Of a stretch of DNA of 64,000 bases, positions 7,394 to 12,923 are shown in pieces. The DNA comes from Lysobacter sp. Lineage in GTDB: Bacteria > Pseudomonadota > Gammaproteobacteria > Xanthomonadales > Xanthomonadaceae. A program made the position numbers and the translations under genes. The first letter of the stretch is position 1. The number at the start of each line of letters is the position of its first letter. Under the pieces are notes generated by a model that saw nothing but the letters and a program-made list of their open reading frames with translations, was not told the DNA's origin and ran no database searches. Location of the stretch: positions 26,050 to 90,049 of the forward strand of contig NZ_DASRTS010000035.1 in assembly GCF_035655815.1 (NCBI RefSeq), written 5' to 3'.

Positions 7394-7538
7394 GATGGTC
7401 CTTATGCTGGTGGAGCCCGGGCGGGGTTCTTCGATCATCGGGAGCAAGGATTAAATGTTCTTTAAAGATCTGTTCTACGGCGCATCCGTGCCGTCCATGA
7501 GGGCATATGGCCGATCACGCGGCCTCGTGCAATGTGCC

Positions 7539-8180
7539 ATGCGCTGGGTTGCGGCGATGTCGCTGGCCTTGGCCGTTGCCCTGCCCGCGTCCGCGCAGAC
7601 CGCGGCGAAGGCCACGCCCGCACCGAAGCCGGCACGCACGGTGCTGGTAATGGGCGATTCGCTGTCGGCCGGATACGGGCTGACTGCATCGCAGGGCTGG
7701 GTGGCGCTGACCGCGGACCGCATCGCGAAAACGAAGCCGGGCTGGCGCGTGGTCAACGCGAGCATCAGCGGCGAAACCACCGCCGGTGGTGCCGCGCGCA
7801 TCGATGGCGAACTCAAGCGGAACAAGCCGTCAGTGGTGGTGATCGAACTGGGCGCCAACGATGGCCTGCGCGGATTGCCGCTGGCGCAGTCGCGCAGCAA
7901 TCTCGATCGCATGATCCGTGCATCGAAGGCCGCCGGTGCGAAGGTATTGCTGATCGGCATGCGTATGCCGCCGAACCTGGGCCGCGAGTACACGCAGGGA
8001 TTCAGCGACAACTACGCCGCATTGACGAAGCAGCATGGCGTGGCGTTGCTGCCGTTCCTGCTGGAGCCGATCGCACTGGATCGCAATGCGTTCCAGGACG
8101 ACAACCTGCATCCGGTCGCAACCGCGCAACCAAAGCTGCGCGATCACGTGTGGATGCAGCTCGAGCCATTACTGCGATGA
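7539..8180 (+). CDS. tesA: SGNH/GDSL arylesterase / acyl-CoA thioesterase I (TesA-like), secreted
   Basis: Signal peptide MRWVAAMSLALAVALPASAQ, GDSLSAGYG block I, GANDGLRG block III, and DNLHP block V. Divergent from ybbA. Upstream in-frame starts exist (7455, 7497). Confidence 0.85.
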   Translation: MRWVAAMSLALAVALPASAQTAAKATPAPKPARTVLVMGDSLSAGYGLTASQGWVALTADRIAKTKPGWRVVNASISGETTAGGAARIDGELKRNKPSVVVIELGANDGLRGLPLAQSRSNLDRMIRASKAAGAKVLLIGMRMPPNLGREYTQGFSDNYAALTKQHGVALLPFLLEPIALDRNAFQDDNLHPVATAQPKLRDHVWMQLEPLLR

Positions 8181-8270
8181 CAGCGAGCCGGATCCGCGAA
8201 CAGGAATTCCATCGCACGCATCGACCACGCATCTACCGCGTGTCTACCAATCATTTCCCGACGAACGGTC

Positions 8271-8299
8271 TTGCATTCAAATTTACGAATGCGTAACGT
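8271..8299 (+). promoter_or_regulatory. Candidate sigma70 promoter (TTGCAT-N17-TAACGT) in a locally AT-rich patch
   Basis: The hexamers and 17-nt spacer were read directly from the sequence. It sits about 90 nt after the tesA stop and about 185 nt upstream of an intrinsic terminator. Confidence 0.35.
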
Positions 8300-8305
8300 G
8301 CGCGG

Positions 8306-8522
8306 CCTTCGCAGTCACACATCAATTTGATCTTCGCAACGCCATGAACATTTTCTTCCCCATCGCCCAGCACGACGCACGCAAGCCCAACGGCTTCGGT
8401 CTGCGTGCGCGCGACGAACACGGCCACTGCGACTGATCTCCTGCACACGGGAGGTCGGTCACCCCGACCTCCCGAGGAACGCGAACGCCCTCGGGTCCGC
8501 AACCCGGGGGCGTTTTCTTTTT
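8306..8522 (+). ncRNA. Candidate ~215-nt independent transcript (sRNA or tiny-ORF mRNA) bounded by a promoter and an intrinsic terminator
   Basis: Predicted TSS lies downstream of the 8271-8299 promoter. There is a perfect 10-bp hairpin at 8449-8473 and a terminator at 8484-8522. The contained 30-codon ORF (8344-8436) has no Shine-Dalgarno sequence. Confidence 0.3.
8484..8522 (+). terminator. Rho-independent terminator
   Basis: 12-bp stem AACGCCCTCGGG / CCCGGGGGCGTT (one G-U pair), 7-nt loop, followed by TTCTTTTTGG. Confidence 0.75.
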
Positions 8523-8837
8523 GGCGTTCGCAAAGGCCAACACACGATCACAACGCGATTGCATCGCGCGATCCCGAAGCATCCGGAACATGCTGGTTTC
8601 GAGGCAGGGAACGCCGTGAAGCGCTGATGCGCTGTGCCTGGATGCTTCGGCACGGGCGGCACGCGGATGCACTCGCACAACGGATTGATGTCTTCGGGTT
8701 CGCCGCCCGGAGGCGTCAGTGCACGGCACATCGGCGGAACATCCACAGCGGCACGGGTTCGTGGCGGAAGCCTCACCCTTCCGGTGCGCGCGGCGCTGCC
8801 GTGGCGTATGCCGTGGATCGATGCAGTGTGTCGTGAG

Positions 8838-8907
8838 CGGACGATAGCTCAGCAGGAAGAGCATCGGCTTCACGCCGACGCCACCGGTTCGAATCCGGTT
8901 CGTCCAC
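8838..8907 (+). ncRNA. tRNA-like element 1 (non-canonical: truncated anticodon arm, C1-A72 mismatch)
   Basis: Canonical D-arm (TA GCTC AGCAGGAA GAGC) and T-arm (ACCGG TTCGAAT CCGGT). Acceptor CGGACGA / TCGTCCA gives 6 bp plus a terminal C-A mismatch. The anticodon arm is TCGGC-TTCAC-GCCGA, a 5-nt rather than 7-nt loop. Total length is about 70 nt. The 3' end reads ...TCGTCC-ACCA if the stem is taken as 6 bp. Confidence 0.6.
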
Positions 8908-8983
8908 CACTGGATAGCTCAGTCGGGTAGAGCATCAGGTTCATCACCTGAGTGTCGCGGGTTCGATTCCCGCTCCAACGACC
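8908..8983 (+). ncRNA. tRNA-like element 2 (non-canonical: weak acceptor stem, CAT-type loop with C at position 37)
   Basis: It starts with zero spacer after element 1. D-arm is TA GCTC AGTCGGGTA GAGC. Anticodon arm is TCAGG-TTCATCA-CCTGA. Variable loop is GTGTC. T-arm is GCGGG TTCGATT CCCGC. Acceptor CACTGGA / TCCAACG pairs at only 5 of 7 positions. The 3' end is ACC-T, so no CCA is encoded. Confidence 0.6.
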
Positions 8984-9392
8984 TGTCACGTCGTTATCCA
9001 AGGGCGAAAGCCCACAACGGAAACACCCCGCGCGGTGTTCCACCGGCACGTCGCCATGTGCGTCGTGCACAACGGAACGCCGCAGCGGTGACATCGCCGA
9101 CCTGTTGCCCTCGAAGCATGAGCGACGGTTGTACGAACGCAATCCTGGCAGCGTCATCGCCATGGAGCGCGGAACGCAGCCGCCGCGTGCAGGCAGCGCA
9201 ACGGGGCCGCGATGTTGGCGTGGGGTGTTTCCATCTTCTTCTTTTCCTCCTGTCTGCAGGAGGGAGCGTGCTCGGTTTGGCGCATGCGCCGACGTATGCC
9301 GCAACCCTCTTCCAGCGAAGAGCAGCATAAGCAACGCGACAACCGATCCCTCGCGCACAAGCGGATCGGACCACCAGAGCCAACAAGGAGAC

Positions 9393-10526
9393 ATGAAGAT
9401 GTTCTGGACCAAGAGGGTCGTGATCGGTGACGGCGAGCGCGGCCTGGTGTATCGCAACCGTCAACTCGAAGCCGTGCTGAAGCCCGGCGTGTACAGCTGG
9501 TTCGATCCGCTGGACCGGATCGAAGTGAAGCTGCACAACATCGTGCTGCGCCCGGAATACGTGGGCAGCGACGAGAGTGCGCTGATCGATCGCCTCGGCG
9601 ATGCGCTCGGCGAGACCTTCGTGCTGGCCGACATCGGCATGGACGAGGTCGGCCTGGTACTGAAGAACGGCAGGATCGAAGAGGTCCTGGCGCCCGGCGA
9701 GCGTCGCCTGTACTGGAAGGGCCCGGTGTCGGTGGAGGTTCGCACGCTGTCGCTGGACGAGACGCTGGAAGTTCCGGCGGCGGTCGCCGCGCGCCTGCGC
9801 CAGTTGTCCTCGCTGGAGCGTGTGGCGGTGGTGCTGGCGGTGCCGGCGGAGTTCGCCGGCCTGGTCTTCATCGACGGCAGGCTGGCGCGCGTGCTCGATC
9901 CGGGCACCTACGCGTTCTGGAACTTCCGCCGCAACGTCGTGGCACAGTCGGTCGATCTGCGCGTGCAGTCGATCGACGTGTCGGGCCAGGAGCTGCTGAC
10001 GCGCGACAAGGTGAGCCTGCGCGTCAATCTGGCCGCCAGCTTCCGCGTCACCGACGCGGTGGCCGCGATCACGCGCGTCGCCAAGTACGGCGAGTACGTG
10101 TACCGCGAGCTGCAGTTCGGCCTGCGCAAGGCGATCTCCGCCAAGACGCTGGACGAACTGCTGGGCGACAAGGCCTCGCTGGACGCCGACATCTTCGGCT
10201 ACGTGCGCGGCCGCACCGGCGAACTCGGCATCCAACTGCTCGGCGTGGGCGTCAAGGACGTGATCCTGCCGGGCGAGATGAAGGAGATCCTCAACAGCGT
10301 CGTGCAGGCGGAGAAGGCGGCCCAGGCCAACGTGATCCGTCGTCGCGAGGAGGCGAACGCCACGCGTTCCCTGCTCAACACCGCACGTCTGATCGAGGAG
10401 AGCCCGGTGCTGATGCGCCTGAAGGAGCTGGAGGCTCTGGAGAAGGTGACCGAGAAGATCGACAAGCTGACTGTGTTCGGCGGCCTGGATGGCCTGATGA
10501 AGCAGTTGGTGAGCCTGAAGCAGTAA
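9393..10526 (+). CDS. SPFH/Band-7 (stomatin/prohibitin-like) protein, apparently soluble, with a triplicated N-terminal repeat
   Basis: AAGGAG RBS at 9385-9390 and ATG at 9393. The C-terminal half has an SPFH-like core (LLTRDKVSLRVNLAASFRV ... GIQLLGVGVKDVILPGEM ... AEKAAQANVIRRREE coiled coil). There is no N-terminal hydrophobic anchor. The 524-aa track ORF is an upstream over-extension across the tRNA-like elements. Confidence 0.85.
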   Translation: MKMFWTKRVVIGDGERGLVYRNRQLEAVLKPGVYSWFDPLDRIEVKLHNIVLRPEYVGSDESALIDRLGDALGETFVLADIGMDEVGLVLKNGRIEEVLAPGERRLYWKGPVSVEVRTLSLDETLEVPAAVAARLRQLSSLERVAVVLAVPAEFAGLVFIDGRLARVLDPGTYAFWNFRRNVVAQSVDLRVQSIDVSGQELLTRDKVSLRVNLAASFRVTDAVAAITRVAKYGEYVYRELQFGLRKAISAKTLDELLGDKASLDADIFGYVRGRTGELGIQLLGVGVKDVILPGEMKEILNSVVQAEKAAQANVIRRREEANATRSLLNTARLIEESPVLMRLKELEALEKVTEKIDKLTVFGGLDGLMKQLVSLKQ

Positions 10527-10641
10527 CCCGTGGGCCGGACGGATTCGGCCCGCGGACAGGCACGGACTGAGCAATCGCAACGACTGAAACACCGAATCAG
10601 AACGACGCCCGGCGTAGTGTCGGGCAGACAAGGACAACGTC

Positions 10642-11865: not shown

Positions 11866-12480
11866 GGCCACGCGCTTGCGAAGCGTAGCTTCGCGCGTGG
11901 CCGAACGCCCGGCCATGGATGGCCGGGCCGGGCGTTCCGGAGCCGATCGCGTTACGCCCTGGATGGCAGCGACACCTTCATCGAAGCACCGAACGCGGCC
12001 TGCCGCGCGGCAGGCCGAACGCCCGGCCATGGATGGCCGGGCCGGGCGTTCCGGAGCCGGTCGCGCTACGCCATGGAGGGCAGCGACACCTTCATCGAAG
12101 CAGCACGTGCGCCATGTCGCGCGTGGCCGAACGCCCGGCCATGGATGGGCGAGGAGGAATGCTTGCGCGCCACTGGCGCGCATTCCGACGAGCGCCCGGC
12201 CATGGATGGCCGGGCCGGGCTTTCCGAAGCCAGTCGCGTCGCGCCATGGATGGCAGCGACACGTTCATCGAAGCACCGAACGCGGCATGCCGTGCGACAA
12301 GCCGAACACCGGCCATGGATGGGCAAGGAGGAATGCTTGCGCGCCACTGGCGCGCGTTCCGACGAACGCCCGGCCATGGATTGGCCGGACCGGGGCTCCA
12401 AAGCCAGTCGCGCTACGCCATGGATGGCAGCCACACGTTCAATCGAAGCACCAAGCGCGGCATGTCGTCATTTCCGCAAG
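11866..12480. repeat. Mosaic array of palindromic intergenic repeat modules (BIME/REP-like), at least 6 core copies
   Basis: It starts with a 10-bp hairpin at 11866-11902. The core GAACGCCCGGCCATGGATGGCCGGGCCGGGCGTTCC recurs at about 11903, 12017, 12129, 12190, 12303 and 12364. A second module, CGCCATGGATGGCAGCGACAC.TTCATCGAAGCA, recurs 4 times. A third module, GGAGGAATGCTTGCGCGCCACTGGCGCGC.TTCCGACGA, recurs twice. Confidence 0.85.
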
Positions 12481-12602
12481 ACCGGAATCCACGGACCTTT
12501 TTTGAGCCTTGCTGTCCGCCTGCTGAAACATAGTTCCGCGCTAGCCTGGCTGGCAGAAGCTATGGCTCTCGTAATCAGGTGCACCGGGAAAGCGTGAAAC
12601 GT

Positions 12603-12630
12603 CCCTGGATCCCCGCCTTCGCGGGGACGA
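12603..12630. repeat. Solo diverged copy of the ATTCCC-N8-GGGAAT-type palindrome (GGATCCCCGCCTTCGCGGGGACGA)
   Basis: Palindrome TCCCCGC-CTTC-GCGGGGA. It is related to the termini of the elements at 34.1-34.4 kb. Confidence 0.5.
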
Positions 12631-12660
12631 GCAAAGGCAACAGCAACACCATCAGTAACG

Positions 12661-12715
12661 ACATCAAACATCAACAACATCAAACATCAACAACATCACG
12701 ACATCAGACATCAAT
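12661..12715. repeat. A/C-rich microsatellite: (ACATCAAACATCAACA) x2, then degenerate ACATCANN units
   Basis: Exact 16-nt duplication at 12661-12676 and 12677-12692, followed by ACATCACG, ACATCAGA and CATCAATG. Confidence 0.8.
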
Positions 12716-12923
12716 GCCGCGCGGCAGCCCGAACGCCCGACCATGAATGCCATCGATCTTCGTCGCATGCGGCGCATTACGCCTTCGGCTAATGCGCCCT
12801 ACGTGGATGGGCGGTACGGCCGGATATGACTCTGTATGGCGCAATAACATTGCGCCACGGCGCTCTCGATCTCCATCGCATGCGGCGCATTACGACCTAG
12901 CCTTTGCGCCCCACGTGGGTTTG

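Follow-up and report, generated by a model that had tools for sequence, protein, structure and literature searches.

What are two transfer RNA (tRNA)-like units doing head to tail, with zero spacer, in front of a slipin gene and an RNA ligase gene in Lysobacter sp.? The units lie in a 64-kb stretch of DNA (~68% G+C), which as a whole is the window of this analysis, and they are the only sites there that a tRNA finder calls. From a comparison of the window with related loci we propose that both units are probably non-decoding tRNA mimics, carried in a larger structured RNA that would be the partner of a slipin-RtcB repair module. The tandem itself is examined first, then the RNA and genes around it, and finally the functions that such an RNA may have. 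Coordinates of all features are collected in Table 1.

An earlier note, made from the letters of this DNA, had described both units, and direct inspection of 8838-8983 bore out every one of its sequence statements about them. Unit 1 has a D-arm with the stem GCTC/GAGC and the T-arm ACCGG-TTCGAAT-CCGGT, with a distance of only 20 nt from D-stem to T-stem. Its short loop is closed by the stem TCGGC/GCCGA, C8838 and A8906 form a mismatch, and the ACCA at its 3' end overlaps the first nucleotides of unit 2. The loop of unit 2 places U33 before CAT at positions 34-36 and a C at 37; its acceptor stem is paired at 5 of 7 positions, and no CCA follows. When scored, as the note had suggested, both units are called by ARAGORN, as tRNA-SeC(tca) at 8838-8908 and tRNA-Met(cat) at 8908-8983, the sole tRNA calls in the window. 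The Rfam tRNA model gives them 50.2 and 52.7 bits (E ~1e-8 for the whole window), above its gathering threshold of 29 and below the 68.9 bits of a tRNA-Pro, the single genuine tRNA so scored. Elbow signatures, namely G18G19 and the T-loop, are common to the units and canonical tRNAs. By eye, the note had likened the backbone of unit 2 to tRNA-Phe; for this putative parentage, a blastn comparison of unit 2 with E. coli genomes returned no match, the query being too short for that database.

Selection on the tandem tRNA-like pair

Loci for comparison were chosen via the neighbouring slipin protein only, which yielded 80 Lysobacterales loci at 72-82% protein identity (designated L### where they must be told apart) and, with the window's own sequence, an 81-sequence alignment (A2). 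One order dominates this sample, and counts across loci are not counts of independent events. A homologous pair occupies the corresponding position in all 80 protein-selected loci, on the slipin strand and 350-550 nt ahead of that gene, and therefore the pair is not a sequencing error; it is also far beyond chance. In the alignment, 87% of cells are paired under the two-cloverleaf structure, a figure that a shift of the 3' partners by 1-3 columns lowers to 30-49%. Both sides have changed in 29 pairs, compared with 15.8 in shuffles, and none of 500 shuffles reaches any of five measures of pairing. Thirty-seven columns are invariant across the 81 genomes, the slipin proteins of which differ by 18-28%. 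The D- and T-stems of unit 2 are invariant in all 81 loci, pairing in its anticodon stem reaches 99.3% and each of the 5 pairs there covaries, and 6 of the seven acceptor pairs of unit 1 covary. Because the stems covary, we conclude that the pair consists of selected RNA structures, neither pseudogenes nor sequencing errors; the random decay that the earlier note had set out as the mark of pseudogenes is not what these figures describe. The conserved part is the tRNA body, comprising the D/T elbow and the acceptor/T stack, and not the decoding parts.

Three oddities pointed out in the window alone, namely the short unit 1 loop, the weak acceptor stems and the abutting of the units, prove to be traits of the family. 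Of the 81 sequences, 56 have a unit 1 loop of 4 nt, 10 one of 5 nt and only 4 (Dyella) one of 7 nt, so that its 5-nt form, the conservation of which was to be checked, is not the rule; the commonest forms are GCAA (14), GAAA (10), GCAT (9) and GCGA (4), often of the GNRA type. The unit 1 acceptor stem has 6 bp in 58 of 81 sequences, and 1:72 is unpaired in 68 of 76. Since the stem is 6 bp long and is then followed by N-CCA, the comparison of its C1-A72 mismatch with the hallmark of initiator tRNAs fails: 1:72 is merely unpaired, in many forms (C.A 29, A.A 12, A.C 10, G-C 9). Only 4 bp, TGGA/TCCA, make up the unit 2 acceptor stem in 52 of 81 sequences (5 bp in 24), C.A occupies 3:70 in 64, and the stem has no free 3' end, as its 3' strand continues directly into the hairpin that follows. 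In every locus, 16-18 nt separate the T-stem of unit 1 from the D-stem of unit 2. The junction between them reads ACCAC in 39 sequences, CCAC in 11 and GCCAC in 7, with (N)CCA-C in ~59 of 81; a T-CCA-CTGGA junction also occurs in the Burkholderiales-like L121 and is absent in L081 and L085. The zero spacer itself is present as described but is not anomalous, because true tRNA genes that do not encode CCA likewise lie end to end, as Cys-Val, Thr-Met and Tyr-Thr-Met genes do in a metagenome scan.

The unit 2 loop is conserved in its frame and free in its centre. Among 58 clean 7-nt loops, C32 is present in 47, U33 in 41, A37 in 57 and A38 in 41, and positions 34-36 hold at least 24 different triplets. 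The pyrimidine at 37, listed as a trait of the unit, is peculiar to the window's own clade: relatives with 95-98% identical slipin carry U37 (L087-L089) or A37 (L090), and C37 is local to the window. Nor does the suggestion of a recognition core, TTCA(T)CAC, shared by the two loops survive comparison, as both loops already differ among these close relatives and, family-wide, unit 1 mostly has GNRA-like tetraloops and unit 2 its many triplets. The loop, stem and triplet data do support the expectation that these tRNA-shaped RNAs are not charged or decoded normally. ARAGORN reports the orthologue in L053 (anticodon tta) as tRNA-Stop. The labels that tRNA finders attach to these elements are arbitrary and include SeC, Met, 'Stop', Pyl-like neighbours and '???' with 2-nt anticodons.

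To follow change over short distances, we compared the window with five contigs that have 95-98% identical slipin and the same synteny. Differences cluster in the two anticodon arms, and each close relative departs from the window at 1-3 of the 5 unit 1 loop positions. In L090 (JGI contig Ga0597100_0000279, slipin 97% identical), the unit 2 arm, TCAGG-TTCATCA-CCTGA at window 8935-8951, is replaced by TCGGA-CTTTTAA-TCCGA, a change at 8 of 17 sites that includes compensatory stem changes, compared with 0 of 59 sites in the rest of unit 2 and 5-12% in the flanks (Fisher p = 1.3e-5). The new loop is Lys-like. Judged from its sequence, this arm looks more like a swap by recombination than stepwise drift, and it could be a single event. 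We also considered whether unit 2 arms are copied from cellular tRNAs and rejected this, as their likeness to Asn, Met, Ile and Lys loops is explained by a generic CU-NNN-AA frame and their stems are family-specific. No covariation of the unit 2 loop with the unit 1 loop or with a TGAT hairpin at ~8620-8635 was seen in the close relatives inspected.

Rates across locus pairs give the same picture of a free triplet. Among pairs with a slipin third-codon divergence of 5-10%, differences affect 37.5% of sites at positions 34-36, 12.9% in the anticodon stem and 2.0% in the T-arm. The 37.5% of the triplet corresponds to a slipin third-codon difference of 8%, and a case for positive selection on the unit 2 anticodon (~4.6x the slipin third-codon rate) was dropped, since other unconstrained loop sites of the same RNA change nearly as fast (25% vs 37.5% in that bin). 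We therefore conclude that the unit 2 triplet is unconstrained, and positive selection is not claimed.

A larger RNA beside slipin and RtcB

Two things lie beyond what had been noticed at first: the slipin and rtcB context of the pair, and its embedding in a larger structured RNA. In the window the slipin gene begins ~415 nt downstream of the pair, on the same strand, and rtcB is next. In 74 of the 80 loci slipin is followed by rtcB in the same orientation, and the gene upstream of the module varies, being a GDSL lipase in only 10. The element travels with the slipin gene. Slipin homologues as such number 7,937 at E <= 1e-10.

Searches that started from the RNA did not serve to find the family. 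A reciprocal metagenome search for an abutting T-arm/D-arm pattern was unspecific, with slipin in only 4 of 61 usable loci and genuine tRNA pairs among most matches, and the pair model R1 was rejected as a family-specific detector since genuine tRNA pairs score up to ~100 bits with it. In three metagenome contigs, L121 (5099-3, minus strand), L123 (3739-1) and L124 (3791-6), 5-11 apparently genuine tRNA genes stand directly upstream of the pair and slipin, on the same strand; RtcB follows slipin in L121, and L123 and L124 end within slipin. One repressor, TrcR, is common to a tRNA-array operon, rtcB and a slipin gene in Anabaena (PMC10272220), an arrangement that the tRNA arrays of these three contigs echo.

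The pair is preceded and followed by further structured elements. At the left, two very stable hairpins and a U-run are present in 79 of 80 loci whatever the upstream gene, and conservation begins sharply at ~8430-8440, so that this hairpin pair marks the left edge of the conserved module. It may serve as an attenuator or as an insulating terminator carried along with the module, or it may form the 3' end of a small RNA; CCCGAGG at 8472-8478 could alternatively pair with CCTCGGG at 8491-8497. Closer to unit 1 lies a three-way junction, hairpin B of which holds the near-invariant block GGTGCGCGCGGC...GCCGTGGCGTATGCC. RNAalifold finds strong covariation in this junction over the 81 sequences, with outer-helix pairs of GC 34/AU 30 and CG 28/GC 21/GU 13 and hairpin A pairs of AU 60/GC 11 and CG 66/UA 11, and equivalent motifs are visible in the Burkholderiales loci L081 and L121.

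Downstream, unit 2 runs into a hairpin that resembles a free-standing anticodon stem-loop (ASL) and overlaps the outer part of the unit 2 acceptor stem as first drawn. At this position, 64 of 86 loci have a 7-nt loop and 19 a GNRA tetraloop. The 7-nt loops hold C32 in 63, U33 in 63, G34 in 56, U35 in 59 and A37 in 63 of 64, with C (37), A (17), T (8) or G (2) at position 36, and G34-U35 is present in 55 of the 86 loci. A uniform scan detects an ASL-like hairpin no farther than 120 nt from unit 2 in 72 of 86 loci, compared with 3 of 86 for a control stretch inside the slipin gene. Genuine tRNA loops match the loops of this ASL mimic, Tyr CTGTAAA in 9 of 9, Asn CTGTTAA in 5 of 6 and Asp CTGTCAC in 2 of 4, and the form CCAGA-CTGTAAA-TCTGG shares a 15-nt core with real Tyr arms. 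Its stems vary with compensation (AACGAC/GTCGTT, CATGAC/GTCATG, CCAGA/TCTGG). A partial third unit, with CTGGA-CTGTCAC-TCCAG as its arm, is present in the distant, Firmicute-like L123.

A GNRA hairpin usually follows the ASL mimic after ~22 nt, in nearly all loci. As predicted from these elements, the RNA is ordered as three-way junction, unit 1, N-CCA junction, unit 2, anticodon-arm mimic and GNRA hairpin. In 48 of 81 loci a GGTGTT(T)CC motif, with a background of ~0.08 per kb, precedes unit 1; at that place the window shows the degenerate GTGTGTCG. The same motif is the 3' arm of the hairpin GGAAACACC/GGTGTTCC at window 9019-9041 and recurs at 9224-9232, where it is part of a 'GGGGCGTTTCCAC + T-rich' block that precedes the start of slipin by ~175 nt. 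This last copy was considered as a second terminator before slipin, which folding does not support (z = +1.6).

Table 1 Coordinates of the tRNA-like pair, the RNA around it and the two downstream genes in the window
Feature	Positions	Strand	Description
Two very stable hairpins and U-run, terminator-like	8448-8529	+	Terminator scan 8483-8515 plus T-run; fold -57.3 kcal/mol, z = -5.9
Three-way-junction leader	8740-8819	+	Outer helix 8740-8744/8815-8819; hairpin A 8749-8757/8776-8783; hairpin B 8784-8794/8798-8809
tRNA-like unit 1	8838-8907	+	Full cloverleaf; 5-nt loop TTCAC replacing the anticodon loop; effective 6-bp acceptor stem 8839-8844/8900-8905
Junction A-CCA between the units	8906-8909	+	N-CCA, then CTGGA of unit 2 directly
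tRNA-like unit 2	8908-8980	+	17-nt anticodon arm 8935-8951, loop TTCATCA; acceptor stem cut to 4 bp, TGGA/TCCA, 8911-8914/8974-8977
Free-standing ASL mimic	8977-8995	+	AACGAC-CUGUCAC-GUCGUU; loop identical to the tRNA-Asp anticodon loop
GNRA hairpin GGGC-GAAA-GCCC	9002-9013	+	In the minimum-free-energy fold
Hairpin GGAAACACC / GGUGUUCC	9019-9041	+	Conserved block 9008-9037, conservation 0.83-0.89
Slipin (SPFH/Band_7), 375 amino acids	9399-10526	+	Pfam Band_7, 117.8 bits
RtcB 3'-phosphate/5'-OH RNA ligase, 407 amino acids	10642-11865	+	Pfam RtcB, 416.5 bits

Homologues of the pair extend beyond the Lysobacterales, to Photobacterium (102.6 bits) and Burkholderia (65.5 bits), with slipins only 40-47% identical to that of the window. 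The tandem is complete in Photobacterium, where unit 1 again has a short loop and unit 2 a 4-bp stub. The Burkholderia unit 1 is reduced to an acceptor/T-arm minihelix, a GAAA tetraloop replaces the anticodon loop of unit 2 there, and in Burkholderiales a GNRA hairpin takes the place of the ASL mimic. In Citrobacter (L082, 3547-5913) and E. coli STEC639 (L083, 3283-5736), a sigma-54 promoter and a structured leader precede slipin, which is followed by the nucleotidyltransferase RlaP (PF10127, 323 bits) instead of RtcB. From these forms, the universal feature is the tRNA 'top half' with its elbow, anticodon loops being dispensable. Slipin homologues at 33-47% identity were found on chromids and plasmids; a phage origin was considered and set aside, as a phage collection contained none.

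Sigma-54 promoters, TGGCACGCTTCTCGCA, TGGCACGCTTCTGGCA and TGGCACGCTCCTCGCT, are located upstream of the leader in the Burkholderia, Citrobacter and E. coli relatives, with a divergent rtcR beside the promoter in Citrobacter. Because the leader sits behind such a promoter, the tRNA-like RNA of these beta- and gamma-proteobacterial relatives would be the 5' part of the operon transcript. The two signs of an rtc operon controlled by RtcR and sigma-54, a TGGCAC-N5-TTGC promoter and a nearby rtcR, are both found in Citrobacter and not in the window, where the stretch 7922-10558 has no match to the promoter and rtcR is absent from the genes adjoining the RNA.

Genes around the pair were picked by third-position GC and confirmed with Pfam, in a scan of eight open reading frames (ORFs) between 4197 and 13978. 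Upstream of the pair lie a ybbP/ybbA-like ABC transporter and a GDSL lipase (7455-8180), and no member of the TROVE family was found among the eight ORFs. The slipin is 100% identical to an NCBI entry, 'slipin family protein [Lysobacter sp.]'. By eye it has no evident transmembrane segment and would be cytoplasmic, with N-terminal beta-repeat modules; its relatives by sequence in the PDB are stomatin and QmcA. An AF2 (AlphaFold) model (pLDDT 67.8) consists of N-terminal beta-repeat modules, an SPFH domain and long helices, and it matches the cage-forming SPFH proteins stomatin, HflK/C, QmcA, prohibitin and flotillin, as well as, among many SPFH cages, the human vault cage (E = 1e-6). The modelled fold fits a scaffold role; RNA binding and cage formation by this protein are hypothetical. 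Right after rtcB, at 11890-12750, lies an array of 4-6 copies of REP-like palindromic repeats, GCCCGGCCATGGATGGCCGGGC, which sit inside direct repeats of 114 nt and 133 nt with copy starts 114-174 nt apart, and which produce spurious long ORFs with repetitive translations.

The locus among known tRNA-like RNAs

To place the locus among known RNAs, we compared it with described classes that combine a tRNA-like fold and an RNA-repair enzyme. A 2018 preprint (bioRxiv 10.1101/312249), in a passage that cites Burroughs & Aravind 2016, describes the b7a-tRNA class as a predicted non-coding RNA that strongly resembles tRNA and is encoded beside a Band-7 gene and RtcB. The locus has each of these features: a tRNA fold (two ARAGORN calls, Rfam scores above threshold and a covarying cloverleaf), an adjoining Band-7/SPFH gene 415 nt downstream and a nearby RNA-repair enzyme, RtcB here and RlaP in the enterobacterial relatives. 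As matched to this secondary description, we assign the locus with high confidence to the b7a-tRNA class, tied to slipin and usually to RtcB. Rfam has no b7a-tRNA family, and the literature searched mentions the slipin/b7a-tRNA branch in this one preprint only, as an unvalidated prediction. The tandem architecture with its fixed junction, the tetraloop of unit 1, the free triplet of unit 2, the three-way junction and the ASL mimic with a G34-U35-N36 (GUN) triplet are not mentioned in the preprint's passage on the class, and the primary paper may have them.

Another close parallel is the Y RNA YrlA (Rfam RF02553) of rsr-yrlBA-rtcBA operons, which likewise has a tRNA-like domain, with an acceptor-like stem and D- and T-arms, in an operon with RtcB. 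That domain has been proposed as a cofactor (bioRxiv 10.1101/312249) or a nuclease competitor (PMC7790460). The window's RNA differs from it in several respects. It scores only 25.1 bits with the YrlA model, against a gathering threshold of 69, in a weak match that spans the unit 1 T-arm and the unit 2 D-arm. It has two complete cloverleaves rather than one domain on a Ro-binding stem, and its candidate partner is slipin rather than Rsr; the flanking genes are a GDSL lipase, slipin and RtcB, with no Ro60/TROVE gene immediately beside the RNA. Both the vault particle, a cage of major vault protein with vault RNA, and Ro60/Y RNA particles combine an oligomeric SPFH-type or ring scaffold with a small structured RNA, and the likeness of the present locus to the vault lies in the protein fold only, as seen in a model of moderate confidence.

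Partner, decoy, leader or tRNA

As a partner of slipin and RtcB, the RNA would offer its tRNA-shaped domains as binding sites to the slipin oligomer, to RtcB or to both. Once bound, it would tether or gate the ligase, which in nature acts on broken tRNAs, in parallel to YrlA with Ro60. The anticodon loops of the two bodies would be dispensable for this role, and the GUN-type ASL mimic would present a generic 'tRNA anticodon' surface. This mechanism is inferred and we hold it tentatively, with somewhat less confidence than an even chance would imply; scaffold, nuclease decoy and sensor cannot yet be told apart.

Several observations weigh against this reading. Five complete loci (L015, L017, L036, L042, L051) keep the pair and slipin and have no RtcB in the stretch examined (a sixth locus without RtcB, L071, is cut off), and the enterobacterial slipin-RlaP leaders retain only a T-arm-like remnant (ATGGGTTCGATTCCCA). 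Because of these two groups of loci the link to RtcB is the looser one, and the RNA is linked more tightly to slipin than to RtcB. The strong constraint on the arms of unit 2 does not say what binds them. No sigma-54 match was found in window 7922-10558 and no sigma-70-like site in window 8150-9450, and with a strong terminator-like element ~310 nt upstream of unit 1 the RNA of the window may be either a separate transcript or an operon leader. The b7a-tRNA class itself was experimentally unvalidated as of the preprint that describes it (bioRxiv 10.1101/312249). With regard to the loci without RtcB, the next long ORF in L042 and L051 has no RtcB similarity, and L036 contains a partial slipin duplicate. 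We take the ORF of L042 and L051, by impression, to be a glutamate dehydrogenase.

The best-surviving rival, which we nevertheless regard as unlikely, makes the RNA a decoy, competitive inhibitor or sentinel for tRNA-cleaving toxins: anticodon nucleases would bind to the tRNA-shaped bodies, of which unit 1 offers no cleavable anticodon loop, the ASL mimic would soak up or report colicin-E5-like nucleases and RtcB would reseal the product. This rival gains from the GUN-type ASL mimic and from the suggestion of Hughes et al. that the YrlA tRNA-like domain may competitively inhibit an anticodon nuclease (PMC7790460). The ASL hairpin keeps C32-U33-G34-U35-N36-A37 in most loci, with loops identical to those of genuine Asp, Tyr and Asn tRNAs, and colicin E5 cuts tRNA-Tyr(GUA), His(GUG), Asn(GUU) and Asp(GUC) between G34 and U35, leaving a 2',3'-cyclic phosphate (PMC6277466), which is the end chemistry that RtcB ligates. 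The anticodon arms, moreover, are the parts that change fastest, as the replaced arm of L090 illustrates; if the decoy reading is true, they would be the trace of an arms race. The rival loses because anticodon-type loops are absent in Burkholderiales, where GNRA replaces the ASL mimic and both bodies lack anticodon loops, so that a bait is not universal. The unit 2 triplet changes only 1.3-1.5x faster than other free loop sites, with no positive selection shown, and no toxin or immunity gene was linked to the locus. U33-G34-U35 is also the recognition motif of tRNA-guanine transglycosylase, which it could equally serve. The most elaborate version, a multi-domain 'tRNA decoy' RNA in which two tRNA-shaped bodies and a GUN (queuosine-family) ASL mimic are held with RtcB in a vault-like slipin cage, intercepting or reporting colicin-E5-type nucleases and resealed by RtcB, would be more doubtful than the decoy idea at large.

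More doubtful again is that the element acts in cis, as a leader that supplies processing or stability signals ('punctuation' for RNase P, Z or E) or, as a sensor, governs read-through into slipin-rtcB, and not as a trans-acting RNA. Its constant place and strand relative to slipin would suit such a leader, as would its location between a sigma-54 promoter and the slipin start codon in relatives, the structured flanks with a terminator-like hairpin at the module edge, and the pairs of L121, L123 and L124 that stand after genuine tRNA arrays as in one tRNA-mRNA transcript. Against this, the 4-bp stub of unit 2 and the mismatched 1:72 of unit 1 would make poor RNase P substrates, a mere processing signal would need neither near-invariant D- and T-arms in 81 genomes nor an extra ASL mimic, and the putative second terminator before slipin finds no support in folding.

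Comparative data exclude the two remaining explanations. Genuine decoding tRNAs of an unusual kind, for example an opal suppressor or SeC-like tRNA beside an initiator- or Met-like one, are highly improbable: the ARAGORN labels, the cloverleaf with its G18G19/T-loop elbow, the Rfam scores and the abutment are those of tRNAs, but a canonical tRNA has a 7-bp acceptor stem with a free 3' end of discriminator and CCA, encoded or added, where the stems of units 1 and 2 comprise 6 and 4 bp and unit 2 lacks such an end, and a 7-nt loop with U33 and a purine at 37, where unit 1 of the window has 5 nt (4 nt in most of the family) and unit 2 has C37. Orthologues share no consistent anticodon, as the triplets of the 58 clean loops and the tRNA-Stop of L053 attest, and both units score below the genuine tRNA-Pro. 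Decaying tRNA pseudogenes or integration-site remnants, which in a single sequence could resemble these mismatched acceptor ends, the short loop and the lack of CCA, are the most improbable of all, as independent decay would leave no compensatory stem changes, no invariant columns and no fixed spacing of 16-18 nt in 81 genomes, nor the same architecture in Vibrionaceae and Burkholderiales.

Non-decoding tRNA mimicry in a larger RNA beside slipin and RtcB thus stays our probable reading of the pair. Which substrates RtcB has in bacteria, and how it is targeted to damaged RNA, are largely open questions. The present locus and its 80-plus relatives give them a testable anatomy, with a conserved tRNA body, dispensable anticodon loops in that body and, downstream, a separate and constrained mimic of the Asp/Tyr/Asn/His anticodon stem-loop. 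As these elements pass standard tRNA finders, they may also be misannotated in genomes as suppressor or selenocysteine tRNAs.

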